From Escherichia phage phiEco32: a stretch of DNA of 64,000 nucleotides. Positions within the stretch are counted from its first letter, which is position 1; each line of letters opens with the position of its first letter. Below, in pieces: positions 2,240 through 9,895 of this stretch. Both the position numbers and the translations under genes were made by a program. The notes beneath the pieces were generated by a model. It worked only from the letters and a program-made list of their open reading frames with translations. It was not told the DNA's origin and made no database searches. The stretch is from sequence record NC_010324.1. One strand, given 5' to 3'.

Positions 2240-3781
2240 ATGTCATTAGATAAACAAATTTATGAAGCTCTAACTGGTAACAATCTTAGTGTAGATGAAA
2301 AGAAAGCACTATTGAATATGTTGAAAGAGCGTGACCAATGGAGGAAGTATAATAGGATTTTGTCTTTCAAGGCGTATGACTTCCAAAAGAAATTTTATGC
2401 AGCAGGATTGAAGCATCGCTTTAGATTCTTGTGTGCAGCGAACCGCGTTGGTAAATCTTACAGCGAGGCATACGAGTTTGCTTGTCATGTCACAGGTCGC
2501 TATCCAACTTGGTGGACAGGATATAAATTTAAAAGACCTATCTTAGCATGGGCAGTTGGTATTACAGGGGATTCCACAAGGAAGGTATTGCAAAAGGAAT
2601 TGTTTGGTACACCTATCGGAAAGGATACAAACTTATTAGGGACAGGTGTCATTCCTCGTGACGCTATCGTCATTGACACGATAGAGCGAGATGGTAACAA
2701 ACTTCAAATCGTACAAATCAAACATCAAAATGAAAGAGGAGAGTTTGACGGTTTAAGTACATTAGAATTCCGTTCAACCCAACAGGGTGAACACACATTG
2801 ATGGGTGCAACAGTTGACTACATTTGGTTAGACGAAGAAGATCCATACGAGTCTATGGCTATATTCGCACAGTGCGTCACACGTACACTCACAACTAAAG
2901 GTCTAGTTACAATTACAGCTACGCCAGAGAACGGTTTAACTGAACTGGTAGATAAATTTATGAAAGGTGAAGGAGATGAGAGCACAGGTTCTCTATATTT
3001 CCAGAATGCTTCTTGGTGGGATGCTCATGTAGACCTAGGTGGACACATCACTGACCAAGATATAAAAGATATGACTGAAGGTATTCCAGCGTGGCAGTTA
3101 GAGATGCGTTCAAAAGGTATGCCATTGTTAGGAAGTGGTTTGATATATGATGTATCGGATGACACAATTAAATGTGAACCATTCGAAATTCCTGATACGT
3201 GGAAACGTGTCTGTGCAATTGATATTGGTATTGATCACCCAACTGCTGCTGTTTGGACAGCTTACGACGCAAACACGGATACTATCTATGTTTACGACTC
3301 ATATAAAGAAGGTGGCTTTACTCCAGTGTATCATGCTCCAGCTATTAATGGTCGTGGTCAGTGGATTCCTGTCATCCTACCGCATGATGCGGACAATACT
3401 GAGAAGGGTAGTGGTTCATCTGTTGCTCAATTCTATAAGAATGCAGGAGTTAACGTACAGAGTGAGACCTTCTACAACAAAATTGGAATGGATGGTAAAA
3501 AGAACTTCTTTGTAGAACCGGGAATCACAGATATCCGAGAAAGAATGATGAGTGGACGCTTTAAAGTCTTTAACACAGCCGCTAACGCTAAGCTATTCGA
3601 AGAGAAAGCTAGATATCACCGTAAGGTTGGTAAGATTATTAAAGAACATGATGACTTAATGGATGCAATGCGCTATTCAGCGTGCTCTGTTACACATCGT
3701 GGTCGCTCTAAGCATGATGTTAGCTACGGAAGCGCTTCTTTGTATGAGGCAAACGTAAGCAGATGGAATCAGAGCTACTAA
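2240..3781 (+). CDS. terL: terminase large subunit
   Basis: Walker A-like CAANRVGKS, Walker B-like IWLDEED, C-terminal nuclease-like acidic motifs (DIGIDHPTAAVW); SD GGAGGAAG. Confidence 0.9.
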   Translation: MSLDKQIYEALTGNNLSVDEKKALLNMLKERDQWRKYNRILSFKAYDFQKKFYAAGLKHRFRFLCAANRVGKSYSEAYEFACHVTGRYPTWWTGYKFKRPILAWAVGITGDSTRKVLQKELFGTPIGKDTNLLGTGVIPRDAIVIDTIERDGNKLQIVQIKHQNERGEFDGLSTLEFRSTQQGEHTLMGATVDYIWLDEEDPYESMAIFAQCVTRTLTTKGLVTITATPENGLTELVDKFMKGEGDESTGSLYFQNASWWDAHVDLGGHITDQDIKDMTEGIPAWQLEMRSKGMPLLGSGLIYDVSDDTIKCEPFEIPDTWKRVCAIDIGIDHPTAAVWTAYDANTDTIYVYDSYKEGGFTPVYHAPAINGRGQWIPVILPHDADNTEKGSGSSVAQFYKNAGVNVQSETFYNKIGMDGKKNFFVEPGITDIRERMMSGRFKVFNTAANAKLFEEKARYHRKVGKIIKEHDDLMDAMRYSACSVTHRGRSKHDVSYGSASLYEANVSRWNQSY

Positions 3782-3786
3782 AGTAA

Positions 3787-3816
3787 GGGGGAGGTTTGTC
3801 CTCCCTTCTTTTATTT
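3787..3816 (+). terminator. hairpin gggagg-tttgt-cctccc followed by ttcttttattt
   Basis: GC stem plus U-run between terminase and portal genes. Confidence 0.45.
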
Positions 3817-3842
3817 AAGCTATCAACCGAGGGAGAGAATAG

Positions 3843-6086
3843 ATGGCTAAGCAAAAATATAGTGAAGAGGTGTTGGACGAGTTACGTGTTGACCTTCAAC
3901 GTCGTTTTAATTACGCTCAAGGTTACGTTGACATGGCTGTTAAGGGCTATGCTCGTGAAGCTTGGGAATATTTCTATGGTAACTTACCTGCACCAGTAAC
4001 TGCTGGCAGCTCTAGTTGGGTAGATCGTACTGTTTGGGAATCTGTTAACGGTACATTGCAAGATATTATTAACGTATTCTGTTCTGGTGATGAAGCAGTT
4101 ACTTTCGTAGCTGACAACCAACAGGACTCTGATGCTGCTGATGTAGCAACTAAACTAGTTAACCAAATTCTTCTGCGTGACAATCCGGGATACAATATTA
4201 TCTCTTCTGCTGCACAAGAATGTCTGGTTACTCGTAACTCTTTTATCAAATACTATTGGGATGAGCACACTTCTACTCAAACTGAAGAAGCTGAAGGTGT
4301 ACCACCGGAAGCATTGGCTGCATATGTTCAGGGATTAGAGGCTGGTGGACTCAAGAATCTGGAAATCTTCACTGAAGAAAACGAAGATGGTACAGTAGAT
4401 GTTAAAGTTACTTATGAACAAACTGTTAAACGTGTGAAAGTTGAATATGTTCCTTCAGAGCAAATCTTTGTTGACGAACATGCTACCTCTTTTGCAGATG
4501 CACAATACTTCTGTCATCGTGTACGTCGTTCTAAAGAAGATCTGGTTGCTATGGGCTTCCCTAAAGATGAGATTGAAGCATTCAACGACTGGACAGATAC
4601 GATGGATACTACTCAATCTACAGTTGCTTGGTCTCGTACTGACTGGCGTCAGGATATTGATGCTGATATTGGTACAGATACCGAAGACATTGCTTCTATG
4701 GTTTGGGTTTATGAGCACTATATTCGTACTGGTGTTCTAGATAAGAATAAAGAGTCTAAACTCTATCAGGTTATTCAAGCTGGTGAGCATATCCTTCACA
4801 CTGAAGAAGTAACTCACATTCCGTTTGTAACCTTCTGCCCGTATCCGATTCCGGGTTCCTTCTATGGTCAATCGGTCTATGACATTACGAAAGATATTCA
4901 AGATTTACGTACCGCGCTAGTTCGTGGTTATATTGATAACGTCAACAATGCTAACTATGGTCGATACAAAGCACTCGTTGGTGCATACGATCGTCGATCT
5001 CTGCTTGATAACCGTCCCGGTGGAGTGGTTGAAATGGAACGTCAGGACGCTATTGACCTGTTCCCATACCATAACCTACCTCAAGGTATTGACGGCCTCC
5101 TAGGCATGTCTGAGGAGCTTAAAGAGACACGTACAGGTGTAACTAAACTTGGCATGGGTATCAACCCTGATGTGTTTAAGAACGATAACGCTTATGCAAC
5201 CGTAGGCTTGATGATGAATGCTGCACAGAACCGTCTCCGTATGGTATGTCGTAACATTGCTCATAATGGTATGGTTGAATTGATGCGTGGTATTTACAGC
5301 CTTATCAGAGAGAATGGTGAAGTTCCTATTGAGGTACAAACCCCTCGTGGTATGGTTCAGGTAAATCCGAAACAATTGCCAGCTCGTCATAATCTTCAAG
5401 TTGTTGTAGCTATCTCTCCTAATGAGAAAGCAGAACGTGCACAGAAACTGATTAGCTTGAAACAGCTGATTGCAGCAGATGCACAGTTAGCACCTCTCTT
5501 CGGTTTGGAGCAAGACCGCTACATGACTGCACAGATCTTTGAGTTGATGGGTATTAAGGACACTCATAAATACCTTCTGCCTCTGGAACAGTATCAGCCT
5601 CCTGAGCCGTCTCCAATGGAAATCCTCCAGCTCGAGATGACTAAAGCACAGGTTGAGAACGTACAGGCTTCTTCTCAGAAGATGATTGCTGATGCATTCG
5701 ACCAACGTGAACGTACTACATTCGAACAGCAGAAAGCTGCGGATGAGCTAAGTCTGCGTCAGGAAGAGTTGCAGTTCAAGCAAGAAAATGCAGCAGATGC
5801 TATGACTCTGGAAAACCGTAAAGAGGATAACAATGCAACTCTGGAACAAGCTAAGCACAAGCTAGCTCTTATGCAACAGCAGGTCCGTCAGTATGAGTCT
5901 GTACTGAAAGAATTGCAGATGGTTATGGAGCATCAGGTAGACCAAGAGAAGATTGTTCAGCAATCTCGTGTTCAGGATAAAACTTTGGAACTCCAAAAGA
6001 AAGAAGCTAATGTAACTAAGAAAGAGCAACAAACTTCTCTCAAAGATTCACGGATTCCAGGCAAACGTCTTGGAAGTAAAAAGTAA
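3843..6086 (+). CDS. portal protein with long C-terminal coiled-coil / charged tail
   Basis: 747 aa directly after terL; SD GGGAGAG; C-terminal ~180 aa Q/E/K-rich heptad-like sequence. Confidence 0.75.
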   Translation: MAKQKYSEEVLDELRVDLQRRFNYAQGYVDMAVKGYAREAWEYFYGNLPAPVTAGSSSWVDRTVWESVNGTLQDIINVFCSGDEAVTFVADNQQDSDAADVATKLVNQILLRDNPGYNIISSAAQECLVTRNSFIKYYWDEHTSTQTEEAEGVPPEALAAYVQGLEAGGLKNLEIFTEENEDGTVDVKVTYEQTVKRVKVEYVPSEQIFVDEHATSFADAQYFCHRVRRSKEDLVAMGFPKDEIEAFNDWTDTMDTTQSTVAWSRTDWRQDIDADIGTDTEDIASMVWVYEHYIRTGVLDKNKESKLYQVIQAGEHILHTEEVTHIPFVTFCPYPIPGSFYGQSVYDITKDIQDLRTALVRGYIDNVNNANYGRYKALVGAYDRRSLLDNRPGGVVEMERQDAIDLFPYHNLPQGIDGLLGMSEELKETRTGVTKLGMGINPDVFKNDNAYATVGLMMNAAQNRLRMVCRNIAHNGMVELMRGIYSLIRENGEVPIEVQTPRGMVQVNPKQLPARHNLQVVVAISPNEKAERAQKLISLKQLIAADAQLAPLFGLEQDRYMTAQIFELMGIKDTHKYLLPLEQYQPPEPSPMEILQLEMTKAQVENVQASSQKMIADAFDQRERTTFEQQKAADELSLRQEELQFKQENAADAMTLENRKEDNNATLEQAKHKLALMQQQVRQYESVLKELQMVMEHQVDQEKIVQQSRVQDKTLELQKKEANVTKKEQQTSLKDSRIPGKRLGSKK

Positions 6087-6095
6087 GGACGTCGA

Positions 6096-6332
6096 ATGAA
6101 CATTAGGCATCAATTCAATAAAGAGCACGCCGCCGCTTTGGCGGCTCTCAATCTTAACGGCAGTCTTGACGCAGCATTAGAGGCATTGAAAGAAAGACTC
6201 ATGACAGAGATAGTTCAAACTGAACCTCATGAGAATAAGAAACGCGAAGATTGTTATCAAAAGTATAAAATGGTGGGTAGCTTAAAAGAGGTCATAAAAG
6301 CTGCTATCAATAGTGCAGGAGATGTTTCATAA
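6096..6332 (+). CDS. hypothetical protein (78 aa)
   Basis: ORF track; SD AAGGA upstream; between portal and scaffold. Confidence 0.45.
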   Translation: MNIRHQFNKEHAAALAALNLNGSLDAALEALKERLMTEIVQTEPHENKKREDCYQKYKMVGSLKEVIKAAINSAGDVS

Positions 6333-7417
6333 TGCCACAAGATAATTATATTGACCCGAATGATTTTAAATCTTTCCTCCAACTGGATGACCTGAAAGGT
6401 TCTTTCAAAGAAGAACTTGGTCGATTAGAATCTGAACAAGAACCAGAAGTGGACATTGACGATGAGTTCCCGGAAGATACCGGTGACAACTTCGACTTTG
6501 ATACCGACCTTCTCGGTGAAAGCGATGAGCTTAAGTTCGAAGATGAAGATGGTTGGGAAGATCATGATGAGGAAGGCGAAGTCGAAGAAGATGGGGATGA
6601 CTCTGATGAAGGTGATGAAAACACTGAAGCAGAAGAGGAAGACTCAAGCGATGCAGGATATGAAGATGATTCTGCTGACGGTGATGGTGAAGTCTTTGAT
6701 GTAGACTACGAAACCGTTATCACCCTTCCTGATGGACGTGAGATGACTATTGAAGAACTCTCCAATGGCTATCTTACTGGTGCTGACATGACTGAACGAG
6801 AGTCAACTCTTCAGCGTCACATGGAAGCATTTGAGGAACGTGTAGTAGGTTTGAAGGATGTATTAGAATTAGCGTCTTTAGAAGCAGACCGAGTAATTGA
6901 AGATTACAACGGATTTGATTGGGACAAGCTTGCAGTAGAAGATCCTCAAGCATATGTTGAAAACAAACGTTTCCTAGAGAAGTACACAGCTCGTCGTAAC
7001 CAGCTTGAACAGGCTCAGGTCCGTATTAAGCAGGAAGCAGCAGCTAAAGAGCAGGAAGCTTTCCAAGCCAAGAGTGTTGAATGTGTTAATATTCTGAAAC
7101 GTGAGATTCCAAATTGGGATGAAAACTTATATCAAAACTTAATGCAATACGCAATTGACTTAGGTGCTACTGAAGAAGAAGTATTGAAGGAAAACCGTCC
7201 GTCTATTTTCCTAGCTCTCCACAAAGCATACCAATTTGATAAAGGTAAGCAGCAGGTGATGGCTAAGATTAAACGTCCCGGTGCTCCACGCAAGGTTGTG
7301 AAGTCTGATGCTGCAAAGTCTCGTACTTCCAATAAGCCAGACAACGCTAAGGTTGCCAAGGCATTCGCAGAGGGTCGCGTTAGTCACGAAGACGCATTCA
7401 AATTCCTCGTAGATTAA
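6332..7417 (+). CDS. putative scaffolding protein
   Basis: Highly acidic N-terminal half, coiled-coil-like middle, located between portal and capsid; SD AGGAG. Confidence 0.6.
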   Translation: MPQDNYIDPNDFKSFLQLDDLKGSFKEELGRLESEQEPEVDIDDEFPEDTGDNFDFDTDLLGESDELKFEDEDGWEDHDEEGEVEEDGDDSDEGDENTEAEEEDSSDAGYEDDSADGDGEVFDVDYETVITLPDGREMTIEELSNGYLTGADMTERESTLQRHMEAFEERVVGLKDVLELASLEADRVIEDYNGFDWDKLAVEDPQAYVENKRFLEKYTARRNQLEQAQVRIKQEAAAKEQEAFQAKSVECVNILKREIPNWDENLYQNLMQYAIDLGATEEEVLKENRPSIFLALHKAYQFDKGKQQVMAKIKRPGAPRKVVKSDAAKSRTSNKPDNAKVAKAFAEGRVSHEDAFKFLVD

Positions 7418-7458
7418 TCGACAAATTAATTATTTAATAGTATAGGAGCTAACATAAC

Positions 7459-8517
7459 ATGGCTAATCCAACTTTATTTGTATCGTATGACCAGAATGGT
7501 AAAAAACTTTCTTTTGCTAACTGGATTTCTGTTCTGTCCCCTCAGGATACCCCGTTCGTATCTATGACCGGTAAAGAGTCTATCAACCAGACTATCTTTA
7601 GCTGGCAGACCGATGCACTGGCAAGCGTTGACGGTAATAACGCACACGTCGAAGGCTCTCGTGCTGAAGACGGCGAAATGAAACCGACTGTTATCAAATC
7701 TAACGTTACTCAGATTCTGCGTAAGGTTGTTCGTGTTTCTGATACTGCTAACACCACCGCTAACTACGGTCGTGGTCGTGAACTGATGTATCAGCTGGAG
7801 AAGAAAGGTAAAGAGATCAAGCGTGACCTCGAGAAAATCCTTCTGTCCGGTCAGGCTCGTACCGACGTTCTGGCTGACCAGTATCTGACTAACTCGGCAA
7901 CTGATCCTGCTGTTGTTGGTCTGAATGACACCCATGCAGCTCGTAAGACTGGTGCATTCCAGTTCCTGTGTGCTCACGGTGGTCTGGCTGGTGGCGTTGT
8001 TGACAAGACCAAGAATGGTCCTGCTGACCCGGATACTGGTGCAGTAACTGTTAAAGTTGCACAGAATGCTTCTAACCCGACCACTAACATTGGTTTCGAC
8101 GAAGCTGATATCTTTGATATGACTCTGCAACTGTACACCGCTGGCTCTGAAGCAGATATCATCATGATTAACCCGGCTCATGCTAAGATCTTCGCTGGTC
8201 TGCAAGAAAATACTCAGGGTTCACGTAAGCGTATCTTTGAGAACACCAAGCAGTTCATCTACGAAGTTAACAGCATCACTGACCCGCTGGGCCAGAGCTA
8301 CAAAATCATCGTTAACCGTTGGATGCCTACCGATGCAGTTTACTTCTTCCGTAGCGCTGACTGGACTCAGATGGTTCTGCGTGCTCCGAAACGTACTGAA
8401 CTGGCTAAAGATGGTTCTTACGAGAAGTGGATGATTGAAATGGAAGTTGGTCTGCGTCACCGCAACCCGTATGCTTCCGGCGTTCTGTTCACTGCTGCGG
8501 GAAAGGTGGCGGCGTAA
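7459..8517 (+). CDS. major capsid protein
   Basis: 352 aa, position after scaffold, SD AGGAGC, codon usage typical of the window. Confidence 0.8.
   Translation: MANPTLFVSYDQNGKKLSFANWISVLSPQDTPFVSMTGKESINQTIFSWQTDALASVDGNNAHVEGSRAEDGEMKPTVIKSNVTQILRKVVRVSDTANTTANYGRGRELMYQLEKKGKEIKRDLEKILLSGQARTDVLADQYLTNSATDPAVVGLNDTHAARKTGAFQFLCAHGGLAGGVVDKTKNGPADPDTGAVTVKVAQNASNPTTNIGFDEADIFDMTLQLYTAGSEADIIMINPAHAKIFAGLQENTQGSRKRIFENTKQFIYEVNSITDPLGQSYKIIVNRWMPTDAVYFFRSADWTQMVLRAPKRTELAKDGSYEKWMIEMEVGLRHRNPYASGVLFTAAGKVAA
8499..8505 (+). other. candidate -1 programmed ribosomal frameshift heptamer G_GGA_AAG
   Basis: X_XXY_YYZ heptamer in the capsid frame 10 nt before the capsid stop; the -1 frame is open from 8409 through 9041; hairpin aacagt...actgtt about 10 nt downstream. 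Confidence 0.5.
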
Positions 8518-8528
8518 CAGTAGACAGT

Positions 8529-9041
8529 GTGACTGTTAGCCCTGCGTCTTTAGCAAGTCTAGAGACAGGGGCTACTCGGCAGTTCACTGCAAGCGCGGAG
8601 AAAAGTGATGGTTCTACCGAAACAACTGGCTTTACTTGGTCAGTGACAGGAGGTGGTTCTATCACTCAGTCTGGTTTGTATACTGCTCCGAGTGCGTCTC
8701 AATCCACTGATGTATCCATTACTGCAACTTTAGAAGGTGTTTCTGGTACAGCAATCATTTCTGAAATTGTTGCTCCTGCTCCTACTATTGTAGCTAAGGG
8801 TCCAATTACGGGTAAAACTGGTGGTTCTTCCACTAACTTCACTACCATGTTTACTGTAACTAATTCTACTGCTGCGGATTACACGTTTGTTGTAACCCCT
8901 ACAGAAGCTGGTACAGTAAGCGCCGCTGGTGCGTTAACCTTAGATGCTGCTGCAAGTGGCGAAGTTACTGTTCAAGCTAGTTTGACAGCCACTCCGTCTA
9001 TCAGTGCAACATGCACTTTTACTGGTGTAACACCTGCTTAA
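8529..9041 (+). CDS. Ig-like (Big_2-type) domain ORF, probably expressed as a C-terminal extension of the capsid protein via -1 frameshift
   Basis: No ATG and no SD; the track start is a GTG; the frame is continuous with the slippery site; sequence VTVSPASLASLETGATRQFTA... is typical of Big_2 domains. Confidence 0.5.
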   Translation: MTVSPASLASLETGATRQFTASAEKSDGSTETTGFTWSVTGGGSITQSGLYTAPSASQSTDVSITATLEGVSGTAIISEIVAPAPTIVAKGPITGKTGGSSTNFTTMFTVTNSTAADYTFVVTPTEAGTVSAAGALTLDAAASGEVTVQASLTATPSISATCTFTGVTPA

Positions 9042-9047
9042 AATTAG

Positions 9048-9076
9048 ACCCTGCCTTCGGGCGGGGTTTTTTCGTT
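9048..9076 (+). terminator. hairpin ccctgcc-ttcg-ggcgggg followed by tttttcgtttt
   Basis: GC stem, UUCG tetraloop, U-run; after the Ig-like ORF. Confidence 0.6.
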
Positions 9077-9100
9077 TTAAGACCTATACAAGCCAGTGTG

Positions 9101-9109
9101 TAATGTATA
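9101..9109 (+). promoter_or_regulatory. TAATGTATA motif (candidate phage-sigma-dependent promoter element)
   Basis: Exact 9-mer 33 nt upstream of the ATG at 9143, directly after a terminator; the same 9-mer recurs upstream of other genes. Confidence 0.45.
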
Positions 9110-9142
9110 TTCTTTGTCTACATATAACAAGGAGGACAACCT

Positions 9143-9895
9143 ATGGCAATGCCAGATGTTCAATACCCCATCAATACCTATGGGTGGCTAAAGAAGGCCG
9201 TGGCCCTCTGGGCAGATAGGGACGATGACGAATTTGTTAATCAAATTCCAAACTTTATTAACTTTGCAGAGAAAGAGATTTATCGTAACTTACGTATTCC
9301 TCCTCTGGAAAAAGAAGTGTATTTAGATATCAAAGATGGAGTGGCTTATATTCCTCCTGATTACTTAGAAGCTCAGTGGATGATGAGAGCCAAAGATGGT
9401 ACAATCTTCCAAGTAACCTCTCCTGAGGAGATTAGCTATCGTAGACAGCACGGAACAATTAACCCATCTCACTGGAACAACCAACCTGTTAACTTTGCTC
9501 GTTTCGGGAGTCGTTTCATTTTCTATCCTAGTATTGAAGCAGATACTCCATACTATCCTGATGATGGAAGCCCTTTGATTCCAGCAGAAAACTCAGTGAT
9601 TCTTAGCTATTATGCAGACCCACCGGAATTCCACGAAGATACAGATACGAGTGCTATTCTTACTATCGCACCAGAGCTTCTTCTGTATTTCACCCTACGT
9701 CATGCTTGTCTGTTTGTTCAAGATGATAATGGAGTTCAGAAATGGTCAGCATTAGGAAAAGCTATCCTTGATGAAATAGTAGAGCAGAATAAGAAACAAG
9801 AGTACTCAGGTTCACCTATCGCAATTCCGAATAACATGACTCGACTTCAGAGCAGCTTGCCTGATATTTATGGTATTCGTACTTCTCGTGTATAA
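9143..9895 (+). CDS. virion structural protein (possibly head-tail adaptor)
   Basis: ORF track; SD AAGGAGG; position between capsid module and tail fibers. Confidence 0.5.
   Translation: MAMPDVQYPINTYGWLKKAVALWADRDDDEFVNQIPNFINFAEKEIYRNLRIPPLEKEVYLDIKDGVAYIPPDYLEAQWMMRAKDGTIFQVTSPEEISYRRQHGTINPSHWNNQPVNFARFGSRFIFYPSIEADTPYYPDDGSPLIPAENSVILSYYADPPEFHEDTDTSAILTIAPELLLYFTLRHACLFVQDDNGVQKWSALGKAILDEIVEQNKKQEYSGSPIAIPNNMTRLQSSLPDIYGIRTSRV

Follow-up and report, generated by a model that had tools for sequence, protein, structure and literature searches.

Programmed −1 ribosomal frameshifting of the major capsid gene is very probably how Kuraviruses such as Escherichia phage phiEco32 come to encode a capsid protein with a C-terminal Ig-like extension. 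An earlier note on this DNA had proposed that the capsid protein gains an Ig-like domain in this way, and the proposal is supported by the register of a slippery heptamer, a −1 open reading frame that has no start of its own, the invariance of the heptamer among relatives, protein conservation in the −1 frame and a conserved hairpin. The GGGAAAG capsid-Ig frameshift was already known for the Kuravirus group and has been published before. For phiEco32, we document the signal, its register and conservation, the absence of a start belonging to the −1 frame and the predicted fold of the extension, all as judged from the sequence; that a longer capsid species is present in virions comes from relatives, in which others observed it, and is carried over to phiEco32 by analogy.

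Results

The capsid gene and the slippery heptamer

The window (the whole stretch of 64,000 nt that was analysed) comes from a prolate E. coli podophage of the phiEco32/SU10 type and is assigned, by nucleotide identity and common gene order, to the genus Kuravirus in the subfamily Gordonclarkvirinae. Escherichia phage SkaterBoy_Bas90 and several further phages match positions 7459–9100 at 98.7% identity, and the 1.6-kb capsid-extension region is 98.3–98.7% identical to SU10 (98.3%), MN03, IMEP8 and other deposited Kuraviruses. Gene order is as in SU10: portal, small ORF, scaffold, major capsid, Ig ORF, adaptor and fibre. The capsid ORF matches Pfam SU10_MCP (PF17236; E = 9e-77, 258.8 bits against a cut-off of 24.1) and, over its full length, the SU10 major head protein (PDB 7z45; E = 9e-236). 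The features of the region are listed in Table 1; the SU10 record has a terminator annotated at the place matching the one found here.

Table 1. Features of the capsid-extension region, with positions counted from the first letter of the window
Feature	Position	Strand	Details or basis
Shine-Dalgarno (SD) AGGAG of the major capsid gene	7444..7448	+	anti-SD duplex −6.5 kcal/mol
Major capsid protein gene, 0 frame	7459..8517	+	352 aa, 38.7 kDa, HK97 fold, SU10_MCP family
Slippery heptamer G_GGA_AAG	8499..8505	+	P-site Gly GGA to GGG, A-site Lys AAG to AAA
G-rich spacer	8505..8514	+	−1 frame: Gly3 linker; 0 frame: Val-Ala-Ala
−1 frame extension, 178 codons and TAA	8505..9041	+	TAA 9039-9041; read only after a slip
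0-frame TAA, end of the short capsid protein	8515..8517	+	sequence
Candidate stimulatory hairpin	8515..8538	+	TAACAGT 8515-8521 with ACTGTTA 8532-8538, 10-nt loop
Ig-like domain 1 (Big_2), extension residues ~5-88	8517..8768	+	Pfam, AlphaFold2, Foldseek
Alternative longer hairpin	8529..8587	+	apical stem GTCNN 8546-8550 with NNGAC 8562-8566; RNAalifold consensus
Ig-like domain 2, beta-sandwich, extension residues ~92-176	8778..9032	+	AlphaFold2, Foldseek tandem Ig-like matches
Intrinsic terminator, 10-bp stem then T run	9046..9079	+	3′ of the extension, not of the capsid stop

Read from its ATG, the capsid frame ends GCG/GGA/AAG/GTG/GCG/GCG/TAA, and since the codons run GCG/GGA/AAG, the heptamer stands in the G_GGA_AAG register. 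Codon reading thus confirmed the X_XXY_YYZ register claimed in the earlier note and, in part, its statement that the heptamer lies 10 nt ahead of the stop: the position near the stop stood, and the exact gap between heptamer and stop is 9 nt. After a slip, the −1 frame reads GGT GGC GGC GTA ACA GTA GAC and onward to the TAA at its end, and the translation matches the predicted junction, ...FTAAGK-GGGVTVDSVTVSPASL.... The −1 frame had also been described as open from 8409; it opens only at 8439, because a TGA occupies 8436–8438, and this correction leaves the frameshift interpretation unaffected. From calculated masses, the fusion product (527 aa) would be 55.6 kDa, compared with 38.7 kDa for the short form.

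In the window, 48 in-register X_XXY_YYZ heptamers fall within ORFs of 150 aa or longer, counted on both strands. An open −1 run longer than 34 codons follows only one of these 48, the GGGAAAG at the end of the capsid gene with its 178 codons, and the mean open −1 run within plus-strand genes of the window is 7.5 codons. The combination of a heptamer with so long an open −1 frame is far beyond chance.

Could the extension be reached by some other form of recoding? Readthrough of the capsid stop codon, +1 shifting and transcriptional slippage have no specific support, and we give them almost no credence, rejecting all three on sequence grounds. Readthrough would meet a second 0-frame stop (TAG, 8521–8523) just after the capsid TAA, the +1 frame is open for just 7 codons beyond the stop, and no homopolymer at the site exceeds 3 nt, a length too short for polymerase slippage.

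The extension and its fold

The earlier note expected a slip to lead into a clean start of a Big_2-type Ig-like domain, and this agrees with Pfam, which places Big_2 (PF02368) over extension residues 6–77 (E = 1.8e-5, 25.0 bits against a cut-off of 22.8), within domain 1 only. Domain 2 has no Pfam match and is Ig-like by fold only. An AlphaFold2 model of the extension, made with 19 homologues, consists of two beta-sandwiches (pLDDT 96.5), and its first strand is formed by extension residues 6–12. In Foldseek, the extension matched the tandem Big_2 segment of Leptospira LigA best (E = 7e-11), and many tandem Ig proteins ranked next. In the alignment of the extension with its homologues, which are 60–94% identical, 44 columns are invariant; judged from these sequences, the extension is under conservation at the protein level.

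The −1 frame lacks a start of its own

The first ATG in the −1 frame is at 8847, and the only start candidates ahead of it are GTG 8529, GTG 8643 and TTG 8676. None of the three has an SD, their duplexes with the 3′ end of 16S rRNA having energies of −1.7, −1.5 and +0.9 kcal/mol, respectively. At the real starts of six neighbouring genes, the anti-SD duplexes range from −6.1 to −11.4 kcal/mol. The claim that the Ig-like frame is without an ATG or SD of its own therefore holds.

It is conceivable, if very unlikely, that the Ig-like ORF is a separate gene that begins at GTG 8529, through independent initiation or termination-reinitiation, and yields a free decoration protein of 170 aa. GTG 8529 lies 12 nt past the capsid stop, and reinitiation needs little SD; sequence records list an 'Ig domain containing protein' that begins at GTG 8529 or at other internal starts, and Siborova 2022 discussed the possibility that gp10 is a minor capsid protein in free form. 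However, GTG 8529 is among the candidates without an SD, and its position is occupied by ATA or GTA in relatives that retain the ORF. In the −1 frame, the 8 codons 5′ of it show protein-level conservation and encode the beginning of the first beta-strand of the extension. As this strand (residues 6–12) straddles residue 9, which is encoded by GTG 8529, a protein starting there would have its first strand cut. The annotated start also varies among relatives: gene callers and annotators disagree on internal starts, giving products of 110–254 aa, some of which begin inside the first Ig domain. In addition, in-frame capsid-Ig fusions occur in relatives, and the SU10 head showed no free decoration density. 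We therefore rejected initiation or reinitiation at GTG 8529, for which the SD is absent, the codon is unconserved and strand 1 is cut. Nor does the ORF, with no conserved start codon and no SD, have the features of a gene for a free capsid decoration protein resembling Hoc or epsilon15 gp10.

Most GenBank records of Kuravirus relatives are annotated with two separate genes. An annotated capsid-Ig fusion was not found by our protein database search, in which the extension matched only stand-alone ORF calls.

Frameshifting at the heptamer makes a prediction for mass spectrometry that internal initiation does not share, in that the first 8 residues of GGGVTVDSVTVSPASLASLETGATR, a tryptic peptide of the extension, are encoded 5′ of every start codon in the −1 frame. 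The junction peptide suggested in the earlier note would be lost from a tryptic digest because trypsin cleaves after K349. A peptide spanning TAAGKGGGVTVD would be expected from digestion with chymotrypsin, Glu-C or Asp-N.

Conservation of the junction among relatives

Relatives were collected in three ways: with tblastn, with peptide patterns and with a DNA pattern built on the codons for RHRNPYASG, which excludes the heptamer. IMG/VR gave few relatives, and a scan of metagenomes with the DNA pattern contributed 6 new distinct junctions. GGGAAAG is present in register at all 13 distinct Kuravirus-group junctions, 9–15 nt ahead of the stop. The spacing from heptamer to stop varies in multiples of 3 nt, and the 3-nt insertions or deletions seen here preserve both frames. 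Protein conservation in the −1 frame begins right at the heptamer (GGGVTVD, GSGGVTVD, GGSVTVD). The −1 frame continues into an extension at 12 of the 13 junctions, with lengths of 172, 174, 175, 432, 439, 454 or 540 aa. Over 125 nt, the phiEco32 junction is identical to those of ShigP1, YW01 and several metagenome contigs.

In SU10, an insertion of 1 nt, 24 nt past the heptamer, creates an early TAG, so that the extension is only 7 codons long; this truncating insertion was also noted in the YF01 paper (PMC9965538).

The truncation in SU10 raises the question of whether the heptamer and the open frame are an inherited relic, with negligible shifting and an extension that is not made in useful amounts. 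SU10 is viable with its truncated extension and has a head of uniform capsid protein, and the folding energy of the hairpin downstream of the heptamer (see below) is unexceptional. We nonetheless regard a relic as highly improbable: the 178-codon frame is intact in phiEco32, extensions are kept at nearly all of the distinct junctions, the extension is conserved as protein, with its many invariant columns, and virions of phage Privateer contain the long form. Moreover, few heptamers are as prone to shifting in E. coli as G_GGA_AAG, the heptamer of lambda G-T.

More distant phages also join Ig-like domains to this capsid protein. Proteus phage YP1, which is Privateer-like and has 57% capsid identity, carries a GGGAAAG that abuts the stop and an extension with I-set and Big_2 domains. 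Salmonella phage pSal-SNUABM-01 and the plasmid-dependent phage Lu221 have two capsid genes each, one short (312 aa in pSal-SNUABM-01, 314 aa in Lu221) and one long (597 and 778 aa, respectively). The long genes are single in-frame genes that encode SU10_MCP and Big_2 domains, and the Big_2 domains continue directly from the PYASG(I/V)LL motif. These in-frame fusions support the covalent attachment of Ig domains at the capsid C-terminus. In LUZ24 and tf (25–29% capsid identity), no extension was found and a terminator lies directly 3′ of the capsid gene, so the feature does not extend to these phages.

RNA structure downstream of the heptamer

The earlier note pointed out a 6-bp hairpin (aacagt...actgtt) about 10 nt downstream of the heptamer. 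The hairpin is there; its stem has 7 bp rather than 6, and it begins 9 nt past the heptamer. Across 12 distinct sequences, the stem is 98.8% paired and the loop is variable. All 4 of the wobble sites (−1 frame) that fall in the stem are invariant, compared with 6 of 27 elsewhere in 8507–8597 (Fisher p = 0.007), in a set of sequences that are mutually related and in which the 0-frame stop places a further constraint on A8516. Rich in AT, the hairpin folds with an energy no better than that of shuffled sequence (z = −1.3). We dropped folding energy as evidence for the hairpin, as it is not significant alone (z = −1.3 and −0.8).

An alternative, longer hairpin emerged from the RNAalifold consensus. 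Its single-sequence minimum free energy is −36.8 kcal/mol (z = −2.1), and 3 of its pairs are changed on both sides, such as UA/GC/AU at 8549/8563, although these are few events. Because a control slid by −1 scored equally high for covariation, we relied instead on the percentage of pairing and on wobble conservation. When both hairpins are counted, 9 of the 15 wobble sites at paired positions are invariant, as opposed to 1 of the 16 at unpaired positions (p = 0.002). The two hairpins share the ACTGTT arm and are thus mutually exclusive; the longer one may also act as a stimulator. Taken together, these patterns in the aligned sequences make a stimulatory RNA structure downstream of the heptamer plausible.

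A different stem-loop, which encloses the heptamer, was proposed in Mirzaei 2014 (PMC4281155). It also folds here (8485–8520, −13.9 kcal/mol, z = −2.5); a ribosome positioned on the heptamer would melt it. An Rfam scan of 8300–9200 gave no frameshift element, only sub-threshold sRNA matches that were driven by the terminator.

Discussion

In the mechanism that we favor, −1 frameshifting, most ribosomes would terminate at the TAA, giving the 352-aa capsid protein. A smaller share would pause while tRNA-Gly occupies GGA in the P site and tRNA-Lys occupies AAG in the A site; the two tRNAs would then move back together by one base, onto GGG and AAA, after which the −1 frame is decoded. This frame would add a Gly-Gly-Gly linker and two Big_2-type Ig-like domains, ending at TAA 9039–9041 ahead of the terminator. 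The 527-aa capsid-Ig fusion may then co-assemble at low stoichiometry among ~715 capsid subunits, with the Ig tandem displayed on the head surface, and in this way the fusion may decorate the head of phiEco32. As the SU10 head has 715 capsid subunits (PMC9509320), a shift of a few percent would therefore give tens of Ig tandems per head. Shift efficiency, stimulation by a hairpin, outward display and an adhesion-type function are what we infer for this system. Both outward display and weak adhesion to glycans would follow by analogy from the work of Fraser et al. (2006), in the form in which it is cited in PMC9965538.

What is known of the longer product in related phages? The GGGAAAG frameshift was described in SU10, 'as in phiEco32', and two forms of SU10 gp9, of 38.5 and 55.4 kDa, were identified by mass spectrometry (Mirzaei 2014; PMC4281155); for phiEco32 itself, the frameshift is known through secondary citation in that paper. 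In Privateer, the same signal was reported together with two gel bands and a minor capsid protein seen by mass spectrometry (2021; PMC7881722), and the GenBank record of this phage has a joined CDS described as 'frameshift from major capsid protein; verified via mass spectrometry'. The frameshift was later described across the Kuravirus-like group in the YF01 paper (2023; PMC9965538). In the cryo-EM study of SU10 (PMC9509320), an extended or minor capsid protein was seen neither as density nor as a gel band. The absence of extra density fits the truncating 1-nt insertion of SU10. The deposited SU10 sequence, with its 7-aa extension, is at odds with the 2014 report of a 55.4-kDa form in this phage.

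The arrangement in phiEco32 is that of the Kuravirus group (phiEco32, SU10, YF01 and Paul), whose members have the same gene, GGGAAAG, register, Gly-rich junction and Big_2 extension. Nothing substantive differs: 178 aa with two Ig domains is the common short variant, unlike the extended isoforms of ~890 aa in YF01 and Paul (PMC9965538), and the truncating insertion of the deposited SU10 sequence is absent here. In Privateer (Grimontviridae), a homologous capsid gene likewise ends with GGGAAAG and has an Ig-like −1 extension, but the gap between heptamer and stop is 0 nt, the extension consists of I-set and Big_2 domains, and the downstream sequence and structure are different.

Outside these phages, a similar system is gene 10A/10B of the podophages T7 and T3, in which a −1 shift near the end of the capsid gene yields a minor, C-terminally extended subunit that co-assembles. 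The T7 capsid family is unrelated in sequence to the one described here, its slippery site is different and its extension is short (~50 aa). Shifting in T7/T3 10A/10B is ~10%, as cited in PMC9965538. Lambda gpG/gpGT has the identical G_GGA_AAG and the same tandem slip of tRNA-Gly and tRNA-Lys in E. coli, with a shift of ~3.5% as cited in the same paper (PMC9965538). The lambda product is a tail chaperone that is missing from virions, whereas the product here would be a structural capsid fusion. According to Fraser et al. (2006), again as cited in PMC9965538, frameshifting adds Ig-like domains to phage structural proteins. Ig-like domains of such proteins are of the Big_2 type, on the virion surface, and have been proposed to bind weakly to surface carbohydrates. 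T4 Hoc differs in being the product of a separate gene that binds the capsid non-covalently, whereas the Ig domains of the capsid fusion would be covalently attached to a fraction of the subunits.

The frameshift is of a textbook type, reported before for this phage group, and current understanding is unchanged by our analysis. Its practical value is an annotation fix, because the nearest relatives in GenBank still show two genes. The correct annotation is a joined capsid CDS; in most deposited Kuravirus genomes, the nearest relatives included, the extension still stands as a gene of its own, labelled 'Ig domain containing protein' or 'hypothetical protein' and given an arbitrary internal start. 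Sub-stoichiometric Ig tandems on a prolate head of ~715 subunits may influence adsorption to cell-surface or mucosal glycans, and the fusion provides a natural site for C-terminal display.

Two further ideas are put forward tentatively, at somewhat less than even odds. The first is that the frozen synonymous sites at paired positions reflect a dedicated, possibly two-state, RNA stimulator, unlike the stem-loop of 2014; the second is that C3 podophages reach a capsid-Ig subunit by three routes. Both the frozen wobble sites with their RNA stimulator and the three-route pattern seem to be undescribed in the literature that we consulted. The three routes proposed for prolate (C3) podophages are the canonical G_GGA_AAG, the heptamer G_GTA_AAG and a duplicated capsid gene fused in frame. 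The non-canonical G_GTA_AAG occurs at the junction of Lahexavirus-like Aeromonas phages, and the duplicated capsid gene joined in frame to Ig domains is found in Salmonella 7-11-like phages.

Ig-like extensions in relatives of phiEco32

The Ig-like extension that would be joined to the major capsid protein by −1 frameshifting is 172-175 amino acids long in most Kuravirus-group relatives and 432-540 amino acids in others. Since the junction is kept across extensions of differing length (Kuravirus-group loci L018, L042, L051 and L054), the variation suggests that Ig-like modules are gained and lost in this group behind a fixed frameshift cassette.

A canonical slippery heptamer is absent from the Lahexavirus-like Aeromonas phages (L008-L011 and L016; capsid identity 55-66%). 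All carry an invariant CTG AAG GTA AAG shortly 5′ of the capsid stop codon, and the −1 frame past this G_GTA_AAG encodes Ig-like domains, either two Big_2 domains (E = 1.5e-34) or I-set. L008-L010 also have, 6-7 nt downstream, a hairpin rich in GC, (G)CGYCC-CUAC-GGGCG(U). This junction is probably a non-canonical frameshift site of the A_AAG type. The paper describing LAh6 does not mention such a frameshift, and the Ig-like ORF is annotated as a "putative tail protein."

Features in the window and in related loci (local coordinates)
Feature	Locus	Position	Remark
G_GTA_AAG junction	L008-L011	about 4410-4424	
G_GTA_AAG junction	L016 (Aeromonas phage LAh_6)	about 3910-3924	
Two capsid genes	L015 (pSal-SNUABM-01)	1982-2920 and 3001-4794	
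Two capsid genes	L017 (Lu221)	3001-3945 and 4022-6358	
AGGAGGT, perfect SD-like	Window	8649-8655	Within the extension; codes for TGGG

Salmonella 7-11-like phages and Lu221 contain tandem capsid genes (63-74% mutual identity), one a short copy and the other an in-frame capsid-Big_2 fusion, which makes a frameshift unnecessary. The long copy retains a Kuravirus-like C-terminal motif, LLTA(S)AA. This arrangement looks like duplication and fusion in place of frameshifting. These genes have been published as "two putative major capsid proteins," with no link drawn to frameshift replacement.

In deposited SU10 (L001, KM044272), a 1-nt insertion within 3565-3582 (window about 8523-8531) gives ACACTGTCTACTG where the window has ACAGTGT-GACTG. 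The −1 extension therefore reaches a TAG after 7 codons, and the rest of the Ig ORF is unreachable in any frame. Although this agrees with the 2022 cryo-EM study (PMC9509320), in which the long form was missing, it contradicts the 55.4-kDa form of gp9 reported in 2014 (PMC4281155). The extra base might have arisen by mutation in the laboratory or by an error in sequencing.

We also note that L013 (IMGVR_UViG_3300033688_000038), with a capsid gene of 55% identity, contains a dnaX-type heptamer, A_AAA_AAG (4421-4427), in register 3 nt before the capsid stop; the open −1 run past this stop is only 40 codons.

SD-like sequence and tRNA genes

ARAGORN detected no tRNA genes across window 1-64000. 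AGGAGGT forms the strongest anti-SD duplex of 7500-9000 (−11.6 kcal/mol). The next 20 nt contain no start codon, so it is probably mere coding sequence, at which ribosomes could pause.
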